33,404 nucleotides of DNA, from NCBI GenBank assembly GCA_947623755.1, contig CANQHB010000001.1, forward strand, positions 1-33,404. The letters are read 5' to 3'. Below the pieces are notes generated by a model that was not told where the DNA came from, made no database searches, and was given only the letters and a program-made list of their open reading frames with translations. The DNA is from an uncultured Bacilli bacterium (GTDB taxonomy: Bacteria; Bacillota_I; Bacilli_A; RF39; UBA660). Below are positions 27,692 to 33,249 of the stretch, piece after piece (the stretch's first letter is position 1; every line of letters begins with the position of its first letter). The position numbers and the translations under genes are program-made.

Positions 27692-30600
27692 ATGGATTTT
27701 TTAACTAATTATTTTAAATATGACAATAATTTAACTATAACCGGTCTAACTCCTACGTTAGCCCATTTTTACGTGTCTAAATTATTTGCCACCAAAAACC
27801 AAAATATTCTCGTCTTAACTTCTACTTTATATGAAGCAAACGAATTATATCGTGGTATTAAAAATTTTGTTAATAATACCTATTTATTTCCAATGGATGA
27901 TTTTTTAACCAGTAAAGCCCTCGCTATATCTCCCGAATTAAAAACTAATCGTATTGAAACTTTAGAAGCTATAAAAGACCATAAAGGAATAATTGTTACT
28001 AATCTTATGGGTTATTTAAAATTCTTAACTGATACTAACGTCCAAAATAAATTAAATATTAAACTAAGTAAAAATATGGACATTAATCGAAATAAATTAA
28101 TTGAAATTTTAGAAGAATTAGGCTATAAACGCGAAACTATTGTAACCACCACTGGCGAATATGCGATAAGAGGTTTTGTTATTGATATTTTTGTTACTTT
28201 AAGCGACCATCCTATCCGTTTAGAATTTTTTGGTAATACGATTGAGTCTATTCGCTATTTTGATGAAGAAACCCAAATGTCTATTTCTGAAATTGAAAGC
28301 ATTATTTTAATACCTAATGGTGAAATAAAAACCGCTAAAAATTCTTCACTATTTGATTATTGCGCTAATCCTATCGTCGTCGCCGTCGATGAAAACCGTC
28401 TTAAAGCTAGTTACCAAAAACTTGAAGAAGAAATGTTTGAATACCGCGTTTCTAAAGATTTAGACCCCAATACTAAATTTATGTTTTCTCCTAGTGATAT
28501 TCCGGTTAAATATACAATCTATCTTAATTTTATTGATAATAAAAAAACAGCTAATTCTCTTAATTTTACCAGCCAAACTTTAACTAACTTTAATTCTGAT
28601 TTTACGCGTCTAAAAGAAGCGACGAAAGTCTGGTATAATAAAGGCTATGAAATAATTTTCTATTTATCTAAACCCAATCAAATCAAAATAATAAAAGAAG
28701 AAATTGAAGTGCCTTATAAAGTCTATAATTCTTACTTAGAAAAAGGTTTCATCTTCGATAAACATGTTGTTATTTCGGAAAATGATATCGAAAACATTGC
28801 GAAAAAAGAAATAAGGTATAAAAATTCCTATAAAATTGGTCGGAAAATAAAAGATATAAATAGTCTTAATATTGGGGATTATGTTGTTCATATGGCTCAT
28901 GGAATTGGTATTTATAATGGCCTTAAAACTCTTACCCAAAATGGTCTTGCAAAGGATTATATCGAAATATTATATGATGGTAATGATAAAGTATATGTAC
29001 CAGTCGAAAAGATGAATACGATTTTAAAATATGCCAGTAAAGATGGCCTAAAACCAAAAATTAATAAATTAAACTCTACTTCTTGGGCTAAAACCAAACG
29101 AAGTGTTGCCAAACGTATTAAAGATATTTCCGAAGAATTATTAAAATTATATGCCGCTCGTCTAGCCATGAAAAAAGATGCCTATGAATCTAACCCTATG
29201 GAAGCAGAATTTGCCCAATCTTTTGAATATATTCCCACTAAAGACCAGGAAAAAGCTATCGCCGAAATATCTAAAGATTTATCAAGTCCTGTACCTATGG
29301 ACCGTCTTTTATGTGGTGACGTTGGCTTTGGTAAAACCGAAGTTGCTTTCCGGGCTATGTTTAAAACTGTCTTAAATAATAAACAAGTCTTTTACTTATG
29401 TCCTACCACTATTTTATCCAAACAACAATATACTTCCGCTTTAAATCGTTTTAAAGATTATCCTCTAAATATTGCTTTATTAAATCGTTTTACTTCTCCA
29501 AAAGATACTAAGCAAATCTTAGCGGATTTACAAAATGGTAAAATCGATATTGTTTTTGGTACTCATCGTTTATTAAGTGATGACGTTAAATTCCAAAAAT
29601 TAGGACTTTTAATTGTGGATGAGGAGCAGCGGTTTGGTGTAACGCATAAAGAAAAGATTAAATCTTTAAAAAATGATATTAACGTCTTAACTTTATCGGC
29701 GACCCCCATTCCTCGGACTTTAAAAATGGCCATGTCTGGCCTTCGGGATTTATCAATTATTGATACAGCCCCCGTAAATAGATATCCCATCCAAACTTAC
29801 GTCTTAGCAAATGAAGACTTAATAGTGAAAGACGCTATATATAAAGAATTATCCCGTAAAGGTCAAATATTTGTCTTATATAATAATATTGAAGGCTTAG
29901 ATAGTATTATTAGAAAATTATCTACTTTAGCCCCTGAAGCTCGTATTGTCAGGGCTCATGGTCGCATGACCAAACAAGAACTTGAAAATATTATGCAAGA
30001 CTTTATCGATTATAAATATGATATTCTAGTTTGCACCACCATTATTGAAACCGGTATTGATATTCCTAATGCTAATACTTTAATTGTTTATAACGCCGAC
30101 CACTTTGGTCTTGCTCAGTTATACCAAATTCGGGGTCGAGTAGGGCGGTCTAATAAAATTGCTTATGCTTATCTTTTATATGATAAAAGTAAAGTCCTAA
30201 ATGAAACGGCCATTAAAAGATTAGACGCCATTAAAGAATTTACCGAACTCGGAAGTGGTTATCGTATTGCCATGCGTGATTTAGCCATTCGTGGTGCCGG
30301 TGATATTTTAGGAAGTGAACAAGCGGGTTTTGTTGATTCTGTAGGAATTAACTTGTACATGCAAATGATTGAAGAAGAAATGCGCCGTTTAAAAGGCGAA
30401 GAAGTAAAGGAAGATACCAGCAAAACTGCACTTATAAATGTTGCTACCCACATTGCGGATGACTATGTCTTAGATGATGAACTAAAAATAGAAATTCATA
30501 ATAAAATAAATGAAGTCTCATCTAAAGAAAGTTTTGACCGTATCAAACATGAATTAGAAGACCGCTTTGGTAAATTAAATGAAGATATTTTAATCTATAT

Positions 30601-30871
30601 GTATGAAGAATGGTTTGAAAAACTAGCTAGTGACTTAAATATTACTAAAGTTACCCAAACTAAGAATTTTATTGAAGTTGACCTACCTCCCGAAGTATCT
30701 AATAATATAAAGGCCGATAAATTATTCTTAGAAAGTTATAATATTAATCCTAACTTAAAATATAAATATCAAAATAAATGTATCAAAATCTCTTTAATTA
30801 TTAAAAAAGACGATAAGCATTTCTTATATACTTTTGTCCCATTACTAGAATTAATTAAGTCCTACTTATAA
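27692..30871 (+). CDS. mfd: Transcription-repair coupling factor Mfd
   Basis: CarD/RID GDYVVHMAHGIGIY, helicase motif I GDVGFGKTEVAFRA, motif II VDEEQRFGV and motif VI QLYQIRGRVGRS. At 1059 aa it is shorter than the ~1150-1180 aa typical of Bacilli. Confidence 0.95.
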   Translation: MDFLTNYFKYDNNLTITGLTPTLAHFYVSKLFATKNQNILVLTSTLYEANELYRGIKNFVNNTYLFPMDDFLTSKALAISPELKTNRIETLEAIKDHKGIIVTNLMGYLKFLTDTNVQNKLNIKLSKNMDINRNKLIEILEELGYKRETIVTTTGEYAIRGFVIDIFVTLSDHPIRLEFFGNTIESIRYFDEETQMSISEIESIILIPNGEIKTAKNSSLFDYCANPIVVAVDENRLKASYQKLEEEMFEYRVSKDLDPNTKFMFSPSDIPVKYTIYLNFIDNKKTANSLNFTSQTLTNFNSDFTRLKEATKVWYNKGYEIIFYLSKPNQIKIIKEEIEVPYKVYNSYLEKGFIFDKHVVISENDIENIAKKEIRYKNSYKIGRKIKDINSLNIGDYVVHMAHGIGIYNGLKTLTQNGLAKDYIEILYDGNDKVYVPVEKMNTILKYASKDGLKPKINKLNSTSWAKTKRSVAKRIKDISEELLKLYAARLAMKKDAYESNPMEAEFAQSFEYIPTKDQEKAIAEISKDLSSPVPMDRLLCGDVGFGKTEVAFRAMFKTVLNNKQVFYLCPTTILSKQQYTSALNRFKDYPLNIALLNRFTSPKDTKQILADLQNGKIDIVFGTHRLLSDDVKFQKLGLLIVDEEQRFGVTHKEKIKSLKNDINVLTLSATPIPRTLKMAMSGLRDLSIIDTAPVNRYPIQTYVLANEDLIVKDAIYKELSRKGQIFVLYNNIEGLDSIIRKLSTLAPEARIVRAHGRMTKQELENIMQDFIDYKYDILVCTTIIETGIDIPNANTLIVYNADHFGLAQLYQIRGRVGRSNKIAYAYLLYDKSKVLNETAIKRLDAIKEFTELGSGYRIAMRDLAIRGAGDILGSEQAGFVDSVGINLYMQMIEEEMRRLKGEEVKEDTSKTALINVATHIADDYVLDDELKIEIHNKINEVSSKESFDRIKHELEDRFGKLNEDILIYMYEEWFEKLASDLNITKVTQTKNFIEVDLPPEVSNNIKADKLFLESYNINPNLKYKYQNKCIKISLIIKKDDKHFLYTFVPLLELIKSYL

Positions 30872-30911
30872 AATACTTGCTTTTTCTAAATAATATCTTT
30901 ATAATAATAAT

Positions 30912-30980
30912 ATAGGGGCGCCAAAGTGGTGTTCTCCTAGTACATGGAATAGTTGAACACCAAAGGTGTTCTATTTTTTT
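30912..30980 (+). ncRNA. Candidate small RNA unit 1 (own promoter, conserved 25-nt core, intrinsic terminator)
   Basis: Promoter TTGCTT-17-TATAAT (30877-30905). Core GGCGCCAAAGTGGTGTTCTCCTAGT (30917-30941). Terminator GAACACC-AAA-GGTGTTC plus TATTTTTTT (30955-30980). No ORF. Confidence 0.5.
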
Positions 30981-31025
30981 CAAAAAAGCTTGCATTTTTT
31001 CTCTCATATGTTATATAATATTACT

Positions 31026-31107
31026 AGGACATACAAAAAGAGGCGCCAAAGTGGTGTTCTCCTAGTCCAAGAACTGTTTGAACACCAAAAGGTGTTCTAT
31101 TTTTTTT
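31026..31107 (+). ncRNA. Candidate small RNA unit 2 (paralogue of unit 1)
   Basis: Promoter TTGCAT-18-TATAAT (30990-31019). Identical 25-nt core (31042-31066). Terminator GAACACC-AAAA-GGTGTTC plus TATTTTTTTT (31080-31107). The ends are estimates. Confidence 0.5.
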
Positions 31108-31168
31108 GGCCGTCGATAATTCTTATACAAAGTACAAGAATAACGACTAGTATTACTAAATACTCCAT
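31097..31168 (-). CDS. Candidate 23-aa hydrophobic peptide (type I toxin-like): MEYLVILVVILVLCIRIIDGQKK
   Basis: Hand-translated. AGGAGG lies 3 nt upstream of the ATG at 31168. One TM-length hydrophobic stretch is followed by a charged tail. The stop codon (31097-31099) sits in the 3' arm of the sRNA unit 2 terminator. An overlapping alternative 45-aa ORF (31062-31199) lies behind GGAGGTGAGG. Confidence 0.3.
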   Translation of the reverse strand: MEYLVILVVILVLCIRIIDGQKK

Positions 31169-31235
31169 AAACCTCCTGTAAAAATACAAAAGTAATCATG
31201 GACCTCACCTCCAATCTATAATTTAAAAAAACTAT

Positions 31236-31271
31236 GGACTAAAGGATAAAACACCAACATTGGTCGCCTCT
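31236..31271 (-). repeat. Third, inverted and diverged copy of the sRNA core, forming the 5' leader of the small-ORF transcript
   Basis: Minus strand: AGAGGCGACCAATGTTGGTGTTTTATCCTTTAGTCC, versus unit 2 AGAGGCGCCAAAGTGGTGTTCTCCTAGTCC. It is preceded by TTGCAT-18-TGgTAAAAT (31278-31307, minus strand), the same promoter architecture as unit 2. Confidence 0.5.
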
Positions 31272-31334
31272 AAAGCCATTTTACCATTAAAATAAACTAT
31301 AATGCAACAAAAATCGGTCGACAAAATTCGACAC

Positions 31335-31366
31335 AAAAAAAGTTAATAACTATCTTCTTATTAACT
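31335..31366 (-). terminator. Rho-independent terminator of the XRE gene
   Basis: Perfect 9-bp stem AGTTAATAA/TTATTAACT with an 8-nt loop, followed by T6 on the minus strand. It overlaps the stop codon. Confidence 0.65.
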
Positions 31367-31596
31367 TACTTTAATATACTTTTAGGATAGGGCTTTCTAA
31401 TATCAGTTCTCCCAATTAGATAATCAACAGACACCCCATAAAAATCCGCCAAAATATCAAGTCTTTCAATAGGAATAGATTGAATACCAAGCTCATATTT
31501 AGAATATTGTTGCTGAGTTGTATTTAGAAGTTTTGCTATATCCGATTGATTTAAGTCTTTATCTTCTCTAATCTCTTTAAGTTTAATAATATTCAT
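31366..31596 (-). CDS. XRE-family helix-turn-helix transcriptional regulator
   Basis: 76 aa with a canonical HTH_3 (LNQSDIAKLLNTTQQQYSKYELGIQSIPIERLDILADFYGVSVDYLIGRTD). Confidence 0.85.
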   Translation of the reverse strand: MNIIKLKEIREDKDLNQSDIAKLLNTTQQQYSKYELGIQSIPIERLDILADFYGVSVDYLIGRTDIRKPYPKSILK

Positions 31597-31740: not shown

Positions 31741-33249
31741 ATGAAAATTGAGAAATTAAATTATGGAAAAGAAAAAAATAAAAGAATGTTTTTATATGGC
31801 TTCATAGTGGCAGTAGTACTTCTTATTTTAGTAAATATCATTGCTAGTAAAGCCATGTACCGAAGAACTGAAAGTGTGCAGTTAGCAACCGGAACAGTCA
31901 ATTATTCCTTAGCTGATTTAAATATTATAGCTATGTATCAAGAAAAAGACAGTTATAATACTGAAGAAGATAAATATAAAAGTATTGAAGAAATACCAAC
32001 AAAAGGATATACTTTAAATAAAGAAAAATCCGTATGTAAAGTAAATAATGATAAAGAAGAAGAAATAGAAATAAAAATTATAAATAACAAAATAACAATA
32101 TCTAATATGACAAAGAAAGGTACAAAATGTTATTTATATTTTGATAAATATGTTAAATCTGGAATGCAAACATTAGCAGATTTGAAATTAAATAAAGATG
32201 GAATACTAGGAGATTCCGTAACAGGAACAGCATGTAATAATGGTTGTACAATAACAAATCAAAATGGAATATATGAAACCGAAGATGATGATGGAAAAAG
32301 TTATATATTCCGTGGAACAGTTGATAATAACTGGTTAAAGTTTGGAAAAATTAAAAATAGCCCAAATGATATCTGGTGGCGGATAATCCGGATAAATGGT
32401 GATGGAACAATAAGAATAATTTATGCCGGCGAAGGAACAAATTTTGGTACAACAGGAAATGGGACAAATGCATTGAATTATGTAGCATATAATACAAATT
32501 ATAATGATAATACGTATGTAGGTTATTACTATGGTTCAACAGGTGGAAACGATTTTAAAGCAACTCATTCAAATAGTACACCAAGTGATATAGCCAGTGC
32601 AACAAACAATTGGTTTAGTAACACTACTAATTTAAATGAAACCACTCAATTAAATCATATTGATGAAAATGCGGGATTTTGCAATAATAGACAAATTAGT
32701 ACAAATGTTAGAGAATGGTGGACAGGTGAAGGAACTGCAGATAGAGGAACCGGAACAGTAGTAACAGCTTACAAAGGAATGTATAATACCCAAACTGCCA
32801 CAGCAGTTTGGCGAACAGATGTAAATTATGCAAGTTTAAAGTGTAGTAGTAGTGCTAATAATTTTGAAGATAATGAAGATTATAAAAGAGATTATTATAC
32901 ATTAAAAGAAAAAGCAACAAGAGGTAATAAAGCTTTAGATTATCCAGTAGGACAAATTACCATGGATGAAGTAATACTTGCAGGAGGATTTGGAGGAAAA
33001 TCAAACTCTGGATATTGGTTAACTTCCAAAACTACCTATTGGACAATGTCTCCACGTTACATGTTCACCCTGAGTTATGTAGGCATGTTCACTGTGAATA
33101 GTAACGGCTACCTCGGCGACATTAAGGCGGACGACACTACTATTGGTATTCGCCCCGTAATCAATCTAAAACCTGATAACGTAACATTGCAAAATCCTAA
33201 TGGAGATAATAAAGGAACAACGTCAAATCCTTATATAGTTAGTGATTAA
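31741..33249 (+). CDS. Membrane-anchored secreted protein of unknown function (N-terminal signal-anchor, Asn/Thr/Gly-rich ectodomain)
   Basis: Lys-rich N-terminus followed by a TM segment, FLYGFIVAVVLLILVNIIA. The C-terminal block YWLTSKTTYWTMSP...IGIRPVINLKP recalls the W-x-x-SP ... G-(V/I)-RP-x-(L/I) signature of uncharacterised Firmicute surface-protein domains (DUF6273-like, from memory). RBS GGAGTAGGGAAG. Confidence 0.7.
   Translation: MKIEKLNYGKEKNKRMFLYGFIVAVVLLILVNIIASKAMYRRTESVQLATGTVNYSLADLNIIAMYQEKDSYNTEEDKYKSIEEIPTKGYTLNKEKSVCKVNNDKEEEIEIKIINNKITISNMTKKGTKCYLYFDKYVKSGMQTLADLKLNKDGILGDSVTGTACNNGCTITNQNGIYETEDDDGKSYIFRGTVDNNWLKFGKIKNSPNDIWWRIIRINGDGTIRIIYAGEGTNFGTTGNGTNALNYVAYNTNYNDNTYVGYYYGSTGGNDFKATHSNSTPSDIASATNNWFSNTTNLNETTQLNHIDENAGFCNNRQISTNVREWWTGEGTADRGTGTVVTAYKGMYNTQTATAVWRTDVNYASLKCSSSANNFEDNEDYKRDYYTLKEKATRGNKALDYPVGQITMDEVILAGGFGGKSNSGYWLTSKTTYWTMSPRYMFTLSYVGMFTVNSNGYLGDIKADDTTIGIRPVINLKPDNVTLQNPNGDNKGTTSNPYIVSD

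Follow-up and report, generated by a model that had tools for sequence, protein, structure and literature searches.

We analyzed a 33,404-nucleotide (nt) stretch of DNA (GenBank contig CANQHB010000001.1, positions 1 to 33,404; here called the window) from the chromosome of an uncultured, low-GC bacterium of the Bacilli, which carries dnaA-side genes and the signal recognition particle (SRP) RNA. A 494-nt intergenic gap between mfd on the plus strand and a gene for an XRE-type helix-turn-helix (HTH) protein on the minus strand holds two predicted small RNA (sRNA) units, a convergent gene for a 23-amino-acid (aa) hydrophobic peptide and a tandem pair of TGTCGAA-type boxes. Together, these elements probably form a chromosomal type I toxin-antitoxin (TA)-like module. 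The features read from the sequence and from predicted folds are as follows (ORF, open reading frame; SD, Shine-Dalgarno sequence).

27692-30871, plus strand: mfd, the left flank of the module.

30877-30981, plus strand: sRNA unit 1, a paralogue of unit 2, with −35 TTGCTT (30877-82) and −10 TATAAT (30900-05); predicted RNA ~30912-30981, with core at 30917-40 and terminator at 30955-71.

30990-31108, plus strand: sRNA unit 2, the candidate cis-antisense antitoxin, with −35 TTGCAT (30990-95) and −10 TATAAT (31014-19); predicted RNA ~31026-31108, with core at 31042-65, terminator stem at 31080-97 and T-run at 31100-07.

31026-31108, minus strand: 3′ tail of the putative toxin mRNA, complementary to sRNA 2 over its whole length, with the 3′ arm at 31069-31039 followed by UUUUGUAUG at 31038-30.

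31062-31212, minus strand: SD1 (GGAGGTGAGG, 31212-03) and ORF45 (ATG 31199, stop 31062).

31097-31177, minus strand: SD2 (AGGAGG, 31177-72) and ORF23 (MEYLVILVVILVLCIRIIDGQKK; ATG 31168, stop 31097), the candidate toxin.

31236-31271, minus strand: leader AGAGGCGACCAATGTTGGTGTTTTATCCTTTAGTCC, the 5′ arm of a predicted long-distance helix and a diverged same-sense copy of the sRNA core.

31278-31307, minus strand: putative toxin promoter, with −35 TTGCAT (31307-02), an 18-nt spacer and an extended −10, TGgTAAAAT (31286-78).

31310-31333, minus strand: tandem TGTCGAA-type boxes (TGTCGAATTTTGTCGAC, then CGATTTT), matching the core of the Spo0A 0A box.

31366-31596, minus strand: the XRE-type HTH gene (76 aa), the right flank of the module.

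The two plus-strand units have in common an exact 24-nt core, GGCGCCAAAGTGGTGTTCTCCTAG, where none would be expected by chance, and terminator-like hairpins followed by a T-run were found three times, compared to 0.4 expected from shuffled sequences. Each sRNA was predicted to fold into a single rod (unit 1, −24.2 kcal/mol, z = −3.8; unit 2, −21.8 kcal/mol, z = −2.9). Both units carry a GGUGUUC/GAACACC/GGUGUUC triple that allows alternative pairings. An attenuator or riboswitch built on this triple was considered and dropped, since the minimum free energy (MFE) structure is one rod with a U-tract and no gene lies downstream on the plus strand. We saw no terminator between the mfd stop codon (30871) and unit 1 (region 30872-30981). 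Read-through from mfd would stop at the unit 1 terminator and would add antisense, antitoxin-like RNA, which resembles what has been suggested for par EF0409 downstream of mtlF.

On the minus strand, the promoter claimed in a preliminary description of this DNA (TTGCAT-18-TGgTAAAAT) is present at 31307-31278. It is of the sigma-A type, and from the sequence the toxin RNA would start at about A31271. A simple promoter scan did not list it, because its −35 has only 3 of the 6 bases of TTGACA; it nevertheless aligns with the clear TTGACA and −10 sequences of the related modules described below. The scan did list another promoter, TTGTCG-17-TATAGT (31296-31324, minus strand), with its −35 within the second TGTCGA box. 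Use of this promoter would move the start of the toxin RNA ~18 nt upstream, and a protein occupying the boxes would then overlap the −35. At the predicted RNA start lies the diverged copy of the core, inverted in the DNA, that had been noted before: the leader repeats the unit 2 core AGAGGCGCCAAAGTGGTGTTCTCCTAGTCC (31039-68) in the same sense, with gaps, at an alignment z score of 3.3 against shuffles.

Downstream of the leader, the two small ORFs overlap out of frame. ORF23 had the highest 15-residue hydropathy (3.5) among SD-led small ORFs. Its peptide has a hydrophobic core, a charged C-terminal tail and no proline, and it can be aligned with the peptides of related modules. ORF45 is not hydrophobic, passes through the complement of the unit 2 terminator and is probably an upstream or coupling frame. 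Both ORFs had been credited with a strong SD. This description suits SD1, which is ideally spaced at 8 to 9 nt from AUG 31199, but it does not suit SD2, which lies only 3 nt from the ORF23 AUG. Within the window, GGAGG occurs in the 17 nt upstream of 3 of the 299 ATG ORFs of 15 to 60 aa, namely, ORF45, ORF23 and rpmH (ribosomal protein L34; 10977-11099, minus strand), rpmH being the sole one outside the module; the module SDs are therefore not background. The ORF23 stop codon (31099-97), which had been placed inside the terminator stem, instead covers only the last base of the stem, its other letters lying in the spacer ahead of the T-run.

A terminator scan of this region of the window found no canonical minus-strand terminator for the toxin RNA, and no U-tract follows the unit 2 hairpin on the minus strand, as the preliminary description had it. 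A toxin RNA that passes this hairpin would overlap sRNA 2 by ~80 nt. The claim that read-through makes sRNA 2 fully antisense to the 3′ untranslated region is borne out by the sequence, since the complement is exact (−127.5 kcal/mol). sRNA 1 is a near-complete complement of the same tail (−98.2 kcal/mol) and could pair with it in trans. A further claim, that the variable loop of sRNA 2 is complementary to codons 10 to 13 of the peptide mRNA, fared less well: the complementarity exists at 9 of 10 positions, but it is at chance level, with 37 to 56% of shuffled loops doing equally well or better.

For the predicted RNA from 31271 to 31028, folding gave −88.9 kcal/mol as the MFE (z = −8.4), and a helix between its 5′ and 3′ ends closed a panhandle. 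A shorter form of the toxin RNA gave a z score of −7.3, with both SDs paired. In these folds, local hairpins hold both SDs and both AUGs, with a probability of being unpaired of ≤0.01 for both start codons. SD1 is held by the leader, whose 3′ part, CCUUUAGUC (31245-37), pairs with it, and SD2 pairs in a local hairpin. The duplex between leader and tail, which contains wobble pairs, had a predicted energy of −41.8 kcal/mol. Because the duplexes of the tail with sRNA 2 and with sRNA 1 are both stronger than this, either sRNA could displace the leader. The leader would resemble the sRNAs because leader and sRNAs are complementary to one and the same 3′ segment, and the modeled 5′-to-3′ fold-back of the toxin mRNA would thus explain the otherwise odd same-sense relation of the repeats.

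To place the module among its relatives, we followed synteny through homologues of the window Mfd, which occur at 75 to 84% identity in metagenome-assembled genomes labelled Bacilli or Firmicutes. The slot downstream of mfd is variable among close relatives. It is empty in L011 (7181-7221), where the next gene directly after mfd is an HTH gene with 38% identity to the window XRE gene. It holds a Fic gene and an HTH gene in L014 (4836-6229), a 95-aa ORF and PadR in L006 (7190-7650) and other genes in L008 and L018. In L009 and in L015/L016, the slot is occupied by a different module, here called type B, in the same orientation as the module of the window (type A). The search for core-plus-peptide pairs by synteny, as proposed earlier, thus found no diverged type A copy but did bring up a module in this slot. 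Among contigs encoding an identical XRE protein, four others carry type A; all are 100% identical to the window and are uninformative. A protein of 435 to 502 aa that has a membrane anchor at its N terminus and matches no Pfam family significantly recurs beside modules and the HTH gene (window, 31741-33249, plus strand; L009, 8146-9459; L015, 7156-8601; L018, 6391-7698; and L024).

Direct sequence searches added no further type A copy. A 21-nt form of the core had only a chance match in Polaromonas among genome contigs, the 24-nt core had no match in metagenome contigs, and an 18-nt form had two chance matches in unrelated contexts among viral contigs. The whole 494-nt intergenic region had no blastn match in plasmid and phage collections, and a search of Rfam returned nothing at the gathering score and only chance-level matches at an E value of ≤10.

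The boxes upstream of the toxin promoter provided a second handle. One is a perfect TGTCGAA and the other a 6/7 match; they stand 10 bp apart and end 2 nt upstream of the toxin −35. This is the only tandem copy in the window, where 0.03 would be expected. TGTCGAA is the core consensus of the Spo0A 0A box (PMC3485338). Immediately upstream of the toxin −35, the window and type B have TGTCGAATTTTGTCGA(A/C)CG.TTTT in common, and a scan of metagenomes with this motif returned 62 loci (L019 to L080) of varied GC content. For most of the loci that were read, the 3′ end of the motif coincides with a −35-like hexamer or is within a few nucleotides of one. Cargo downstream varies and includes a UvrD-like helicase, a cold-shock protein, conjugation-type genes, membrane proteins and small hydrophobic ORFs. 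The tandem motif was absent from viral contigs, and a phage link was dropped. The motif is a direct repeat (TGTCGAA-TTT-TGTCGAA) rather than a hairpin. We also considered it as a terminator or operator of the XRE gene and rejected both, since most copies cannot form a hairpin and an HTH gene stands just upstream only in the window and in type B loci. Sporulation genes occur near the modules or in relatives: SpoIVA lies beside the L020 module, and BofA and SpoVT are found in Mfd relatives.

Among 45 distinct motif-bearing sequences (window and type B included), 7 had the full architecture and another, L042, was a mosaic; the metagenome modules were retrieved via the motif, and the association of motif and module is partly by construction. 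The modules fall into four sequence-unrelated types: A, the window; B, in L009, L015 and L024; C, in L020, L078 and the mosaic L042; and D, in L026 and L069. The 7 full modules share one order, in which tandem boxes, promoter, a leader arm no more than ~15 nt from the predicted RNA start, a sequestered SD and a small ORF are followed by an A-run with the sRNA terminator, the complement of the leader arm and the convergent promoter. Offsets from the motif are nearly constant (leader arm, +51 to +99; ORF, ~+135 to +285; 3′ arm, +256 to +306), and in three of the four types, each arm is preceded by a −10 box at a distance of ~7 nt. The SD spacing in types B and C is the same as that of SD1. The peptides, of 23 to 41 aa, are hydrophobic except in L024, and their sequences diverge fast, with only hydrophobicity kept. 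In type B, for example, L009 has a 33-aa ORF, MIKAILFVIILFKAIKMTLILISIDIKINVHRK, behind AGGAGG (the L015 copy differs by 4 substitutions), a convergent promoter and terminator are present, and the leader GAACATTTAAGACGAGTGCCTAC copies the sRNA 5′ end GAACATTTAAGAACAAATGCCTAC; the full-length RNA closes 5′ to 3′ with a z score of −4.95. Type D includes L026, which has a second tandem sRNA paralogue, as does the window, and an upstream SD with a mini-ORF before the toxin start.

All 7 full-length RNAs were predicted to fold with a terminal helix that joins the 5′ end to the 3′ end. Cognate leader/tail duplexes ranged from −30 to −42 kcal/mol, compared to −7 to −22 kcal/mol for cross-type pairs. 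Within types B and D, cognate pairs were as good as or better than cross pairs (equal for L009 and L015, whose tails are identical; 4 to 12 kcal/mol lower for the others). The changes that separate each leader from the sRNA-sense arm are biased: A→G (8 changes) and C→U (4 changes), which keep pairing with the tail through G·U, far outnumber the disruptive G→A (1 change) and U→C (none), and the ratio is ~10 to 1 for independent events, as L009 and L015 share two. Such a bias argues for selection on RNA pairing, and a DNA operator would not produce it. Over the ~480 nt compared, 6 substitutions, all within 24 nt of the ORF (+183 to +207 from the motif), are the sole differences between L020 and L078. 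These fall in the hydrophobic core; 3 are synonymous, and I→V and T→S replacements are also present.

Two groups of loci depart from this layout. L042 shares its toxin promoter, leader and ORF start with L020 but differs in ORF end, terminator and 3′ arm; from its sequence, it looks like a recombinant between modules. In L071, L074 and L034, the motif is followed by other small hydrophobic ORFs, e.g., MIFKIILFFFILLFIRRIILKFLSKRILRKIQIKDS, without the leader/tail repeat. These three loci share the downstream element AAGTTT(T/A)TAATCTTGTA(A/G)(A/G)G and may represent a further module type with a different layout.

The locus can be compared with known type I TA systems at several levels. It has the generic features of such systems: a gene of <60 aa for a hydrophobic peptide with translation signals (ORF23, with its SD2 spacing of 3 nt), an sRNA gene predicted to be complementary to the toxin mRNA, and a ribosome binding site that is occluded in the predicted folds of that mRNA. 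The par/Fst system (RNA I-RNA II of Enterococcus faecalis pAD1 and chromosomal relatives) likewise has convergent promoters, a shared sRNA terminator hairpin, an SD in an intramolecular hairpin and a toxin RNA 5′ end sequestered in a stabilizing helix, the 5′-UH; its peptide, too, carries a charged C-terminal tail behind a hydrophobic core, and an upstream gene may read into the antitoxin (PMC7472228). In the module, the 5′ end pairs with the 3′ tail in the predicted MFE structure, which makes this helix an analogue, not necessarily a homologue, of the 5′-UH. The departure from par/Fst pointed out in the preliminary description is correct. In par, the direct repeats DRa and DRb make the 5′ regions complementary, and the antitoxin masks the start site; in the module, an inverted repeat leaves toxin leader and sRNA 5′ region alike and same-sense, and the antitoxin would pair with the 3′ tail. 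The par terminator is bidirectional, while the shared hairpin of the module (31080-97) has a U-tract on the plus strand only. The module peptide also lacks the PXXXG(C) motif (PMC7472228) and had no match to the Pfam family Fst_toxin at an E value of ≤10.

Convergent genes with a long 3′ overlap are also found in txpA/RatA and bsrG/SR4 of Bacillus subtilis and in the CD2517.1/RCd8-type systems of Clostridioides difficile. To our knowledge, no 5′-to-3′ fold-back that uses the antitoxin target has been described for any of these. Their toxins, of 38 to 59 aa, are unrelated to the module peptide, with no homology in Pfam, NCBIfam or Rfam, and their loci lie in prophages or beside CRISPR arrays, whereas the module sits in a core-genome slot. 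In Firmicute 3′-overlap systems, removal of the toxin mRNA has been ascribed to duplex formation and to the action of RNase III or other RNases (PMC6563280).

A lock of the 5′ end to the 3′ end, together with local hairpins that sequester the SD, is known from hok/sok of plasmid R1 and aapA/IsoA of Helicobacter pylori (PMC6733600). A hok-type 5′-3′ interaction with co-variation was likewise found in the predicted folds of the modules (7 modules of four types). Translation of hok needs the overlapping upstream frame mok, a part that ORF45 could play. In hok and aapA, however, the 3′ arm is an anti-SD, the antitoxin overlaps the 5′ region and activation requires 3′ trimming; in the module, nearby sequences hold the SDs, the predicted antitoxin target is the 3′ arm itself and the sRNA overlaps the 3′ end. 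The hok and aapA systems belong to Proteobacteria and Campylobacterota and have no sequence similarity to the module.

The working model is as follows. The minus-strand promoter, below the tandem Spo0A-box-like motifs, would make an RNA of ~240 nt encoding the 23-aa hydrophobic peptide, and two plus-strand sRNAs of ~70 to 80 nt would be transcribed toward the toxin gene. The first ~35 nt of the toxin mRNA, a G/U-enriched copy of the sRNA 5′ region, would pair with the mRNA's own 3′ tail. The resulting panhandle, with SDs and AUGs paired, may keep the message stable and translationally silent. An sRNA would compete with the leader for the tail; its binding would expose the ends of the mRNA and create a substrate for RNase III, and the message would be destroyed. 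Should the supply of sRNA drop, surviving toxin mRNA could be processed and translated, and initiation at ORF23 could be direct or coupled to ORF45, as in mok/hok.

The type I TA-like reading proposed for this locus is thus supported by convergent promoters, an SD-led hydrophobic ORF, a structured toxin RNA, antisense sRNAs and an architecture that recurs. A number of observations weigh against it. Type A is a single sequence, for which no diverged homologue was found. The SD2-to-AUG gap of ORF23 is only 3 nt, and a spacing of 3 nt is below the usual functional minimum. AT-rich DNA readily yields hydrophobic ORFs, and none of the module peptides matched a known toxin family, with no hit in Pfam (E value of ≤10) or NCBIfam. 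The full overlap and the panhandle require that transcription continue beyond the unit 2 hairpin. L024 encodes a nonhydrophobic peptide, and in L042 the leader/tail pairing amounts to only −13.5 kcal/mol, most of the complementarity having been lost. Finally, a translational switch operated by sRNA binding, like that of SR4, was not supported, as the predicted effect of blocking the tail on SD accessibility was inconsistent across modules.

Some of these points leave room for other explanations. The RNA architecture could be real and its product a harmless small membrane peptide, e.g., a stationary-phase or sporulation factor controlled by Spo0A and tuned by cis-antisense RNA, in which case the locus would be no TA pair. 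We regard this as unlikely, although the tandem boxes upstream of the promoter, the spore-former context (SpoIVA, BofA and SpoVT), the chromosomal location of a module absent from the viral contigs, plasmids and phages searched and the nonhydrophobic L024 peptide would all suit it. Heavy sequestration of SD and start codon, a protective 5′-3′ helix, one or two copies of a full-length antisense RNA and patchy occurrence in a variable slot are, on the other hand, hallmarks of type I TA loci and not of common small-protein genes (PMC6563280, PMC6733600, PMC7472228), and the peptides diverge fast, keeping hydrophobicity only.

It is also conceivable, if quite improbable, that the locus is a decayed or attenuated remnant, in which the hydrophobic ORF is poorly translated and the RNAs persist without toxin function. 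The short SD spacing of ORF23 fits such decay, as does the well-placed, leader-held SD1 with AUG 31199, which opens an out-of-frame, nonhydrophobic frame of 45 codons; loss of a single T from a T5 run would fuse that frame to the hydrophobic one. ORF23 read from its own AUG nevertheless fits the type D peptides in length (23 to 26 aa) and layout, the upstream SD and mini-ORF of L026 suggest coupling rather than decay, and the type A sequence is identical across four independent assemblies.

Very improbable is a locus with no functional RNA pair, made up of inverted duplicated terminators or protein-binding operators and of small ORFs accidental in AT-rich sequence: unit 1 is indeed the first terminator after mfd, an HTH regulator gene adjoins, the promoter-scan count is near the shuffle expectation (9 found versus 6.6) and the toxin and unit 2 −35 hexamers (both TTGCAT) match consensus at 3 of 6 positions only, but the substitution bias of 12 to 1 toward A→G and C→U fits RNA pairing and not a symmetric DNA operator, four unrelated arm sequences keep a constant geometry, GGAGG precedes small ORFs elsewhere in the window only at rpmH, and the L020/L078 substitutions preserve the ORF.

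Homology is a poor guide to type I TA loci, of which almost none are known from uncultured gut Bacilli. If the type I TA-like reading is right, the design unites the 3′-overlap antisense arrangement of Firmicutes with a 5′-3′ lock like that of hok and aapA, which so far have been described in separate systems. Competition of lock and antitoxin for one RNA segment would amount to a testable strand-displacement mechanism. The architecture also serves as a search recipe, by which at least four sequence-unrelated types were found. It is possible, though on the doubtful side, that gut Firmicutes have in these modules a type I toxin family, gated by sporulation and not yet described, whose mRNA mimics its own antitoxin, with the sRNA acting by toehold displacement of the leader and Spo0A~P, bound at the tandem boxes, setting the timing. 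The 5′ leader would cover the antitoxin target on the 3′ tail and so hold the message in a silent, nuclease-resistant panhandle. The toxin would then be made for, e.g., mother-cell lysis, cannibalism or a commitment checkpoint, and if the boxes are true Spo0A sites, they would tie small toxins to the sporulation decision.

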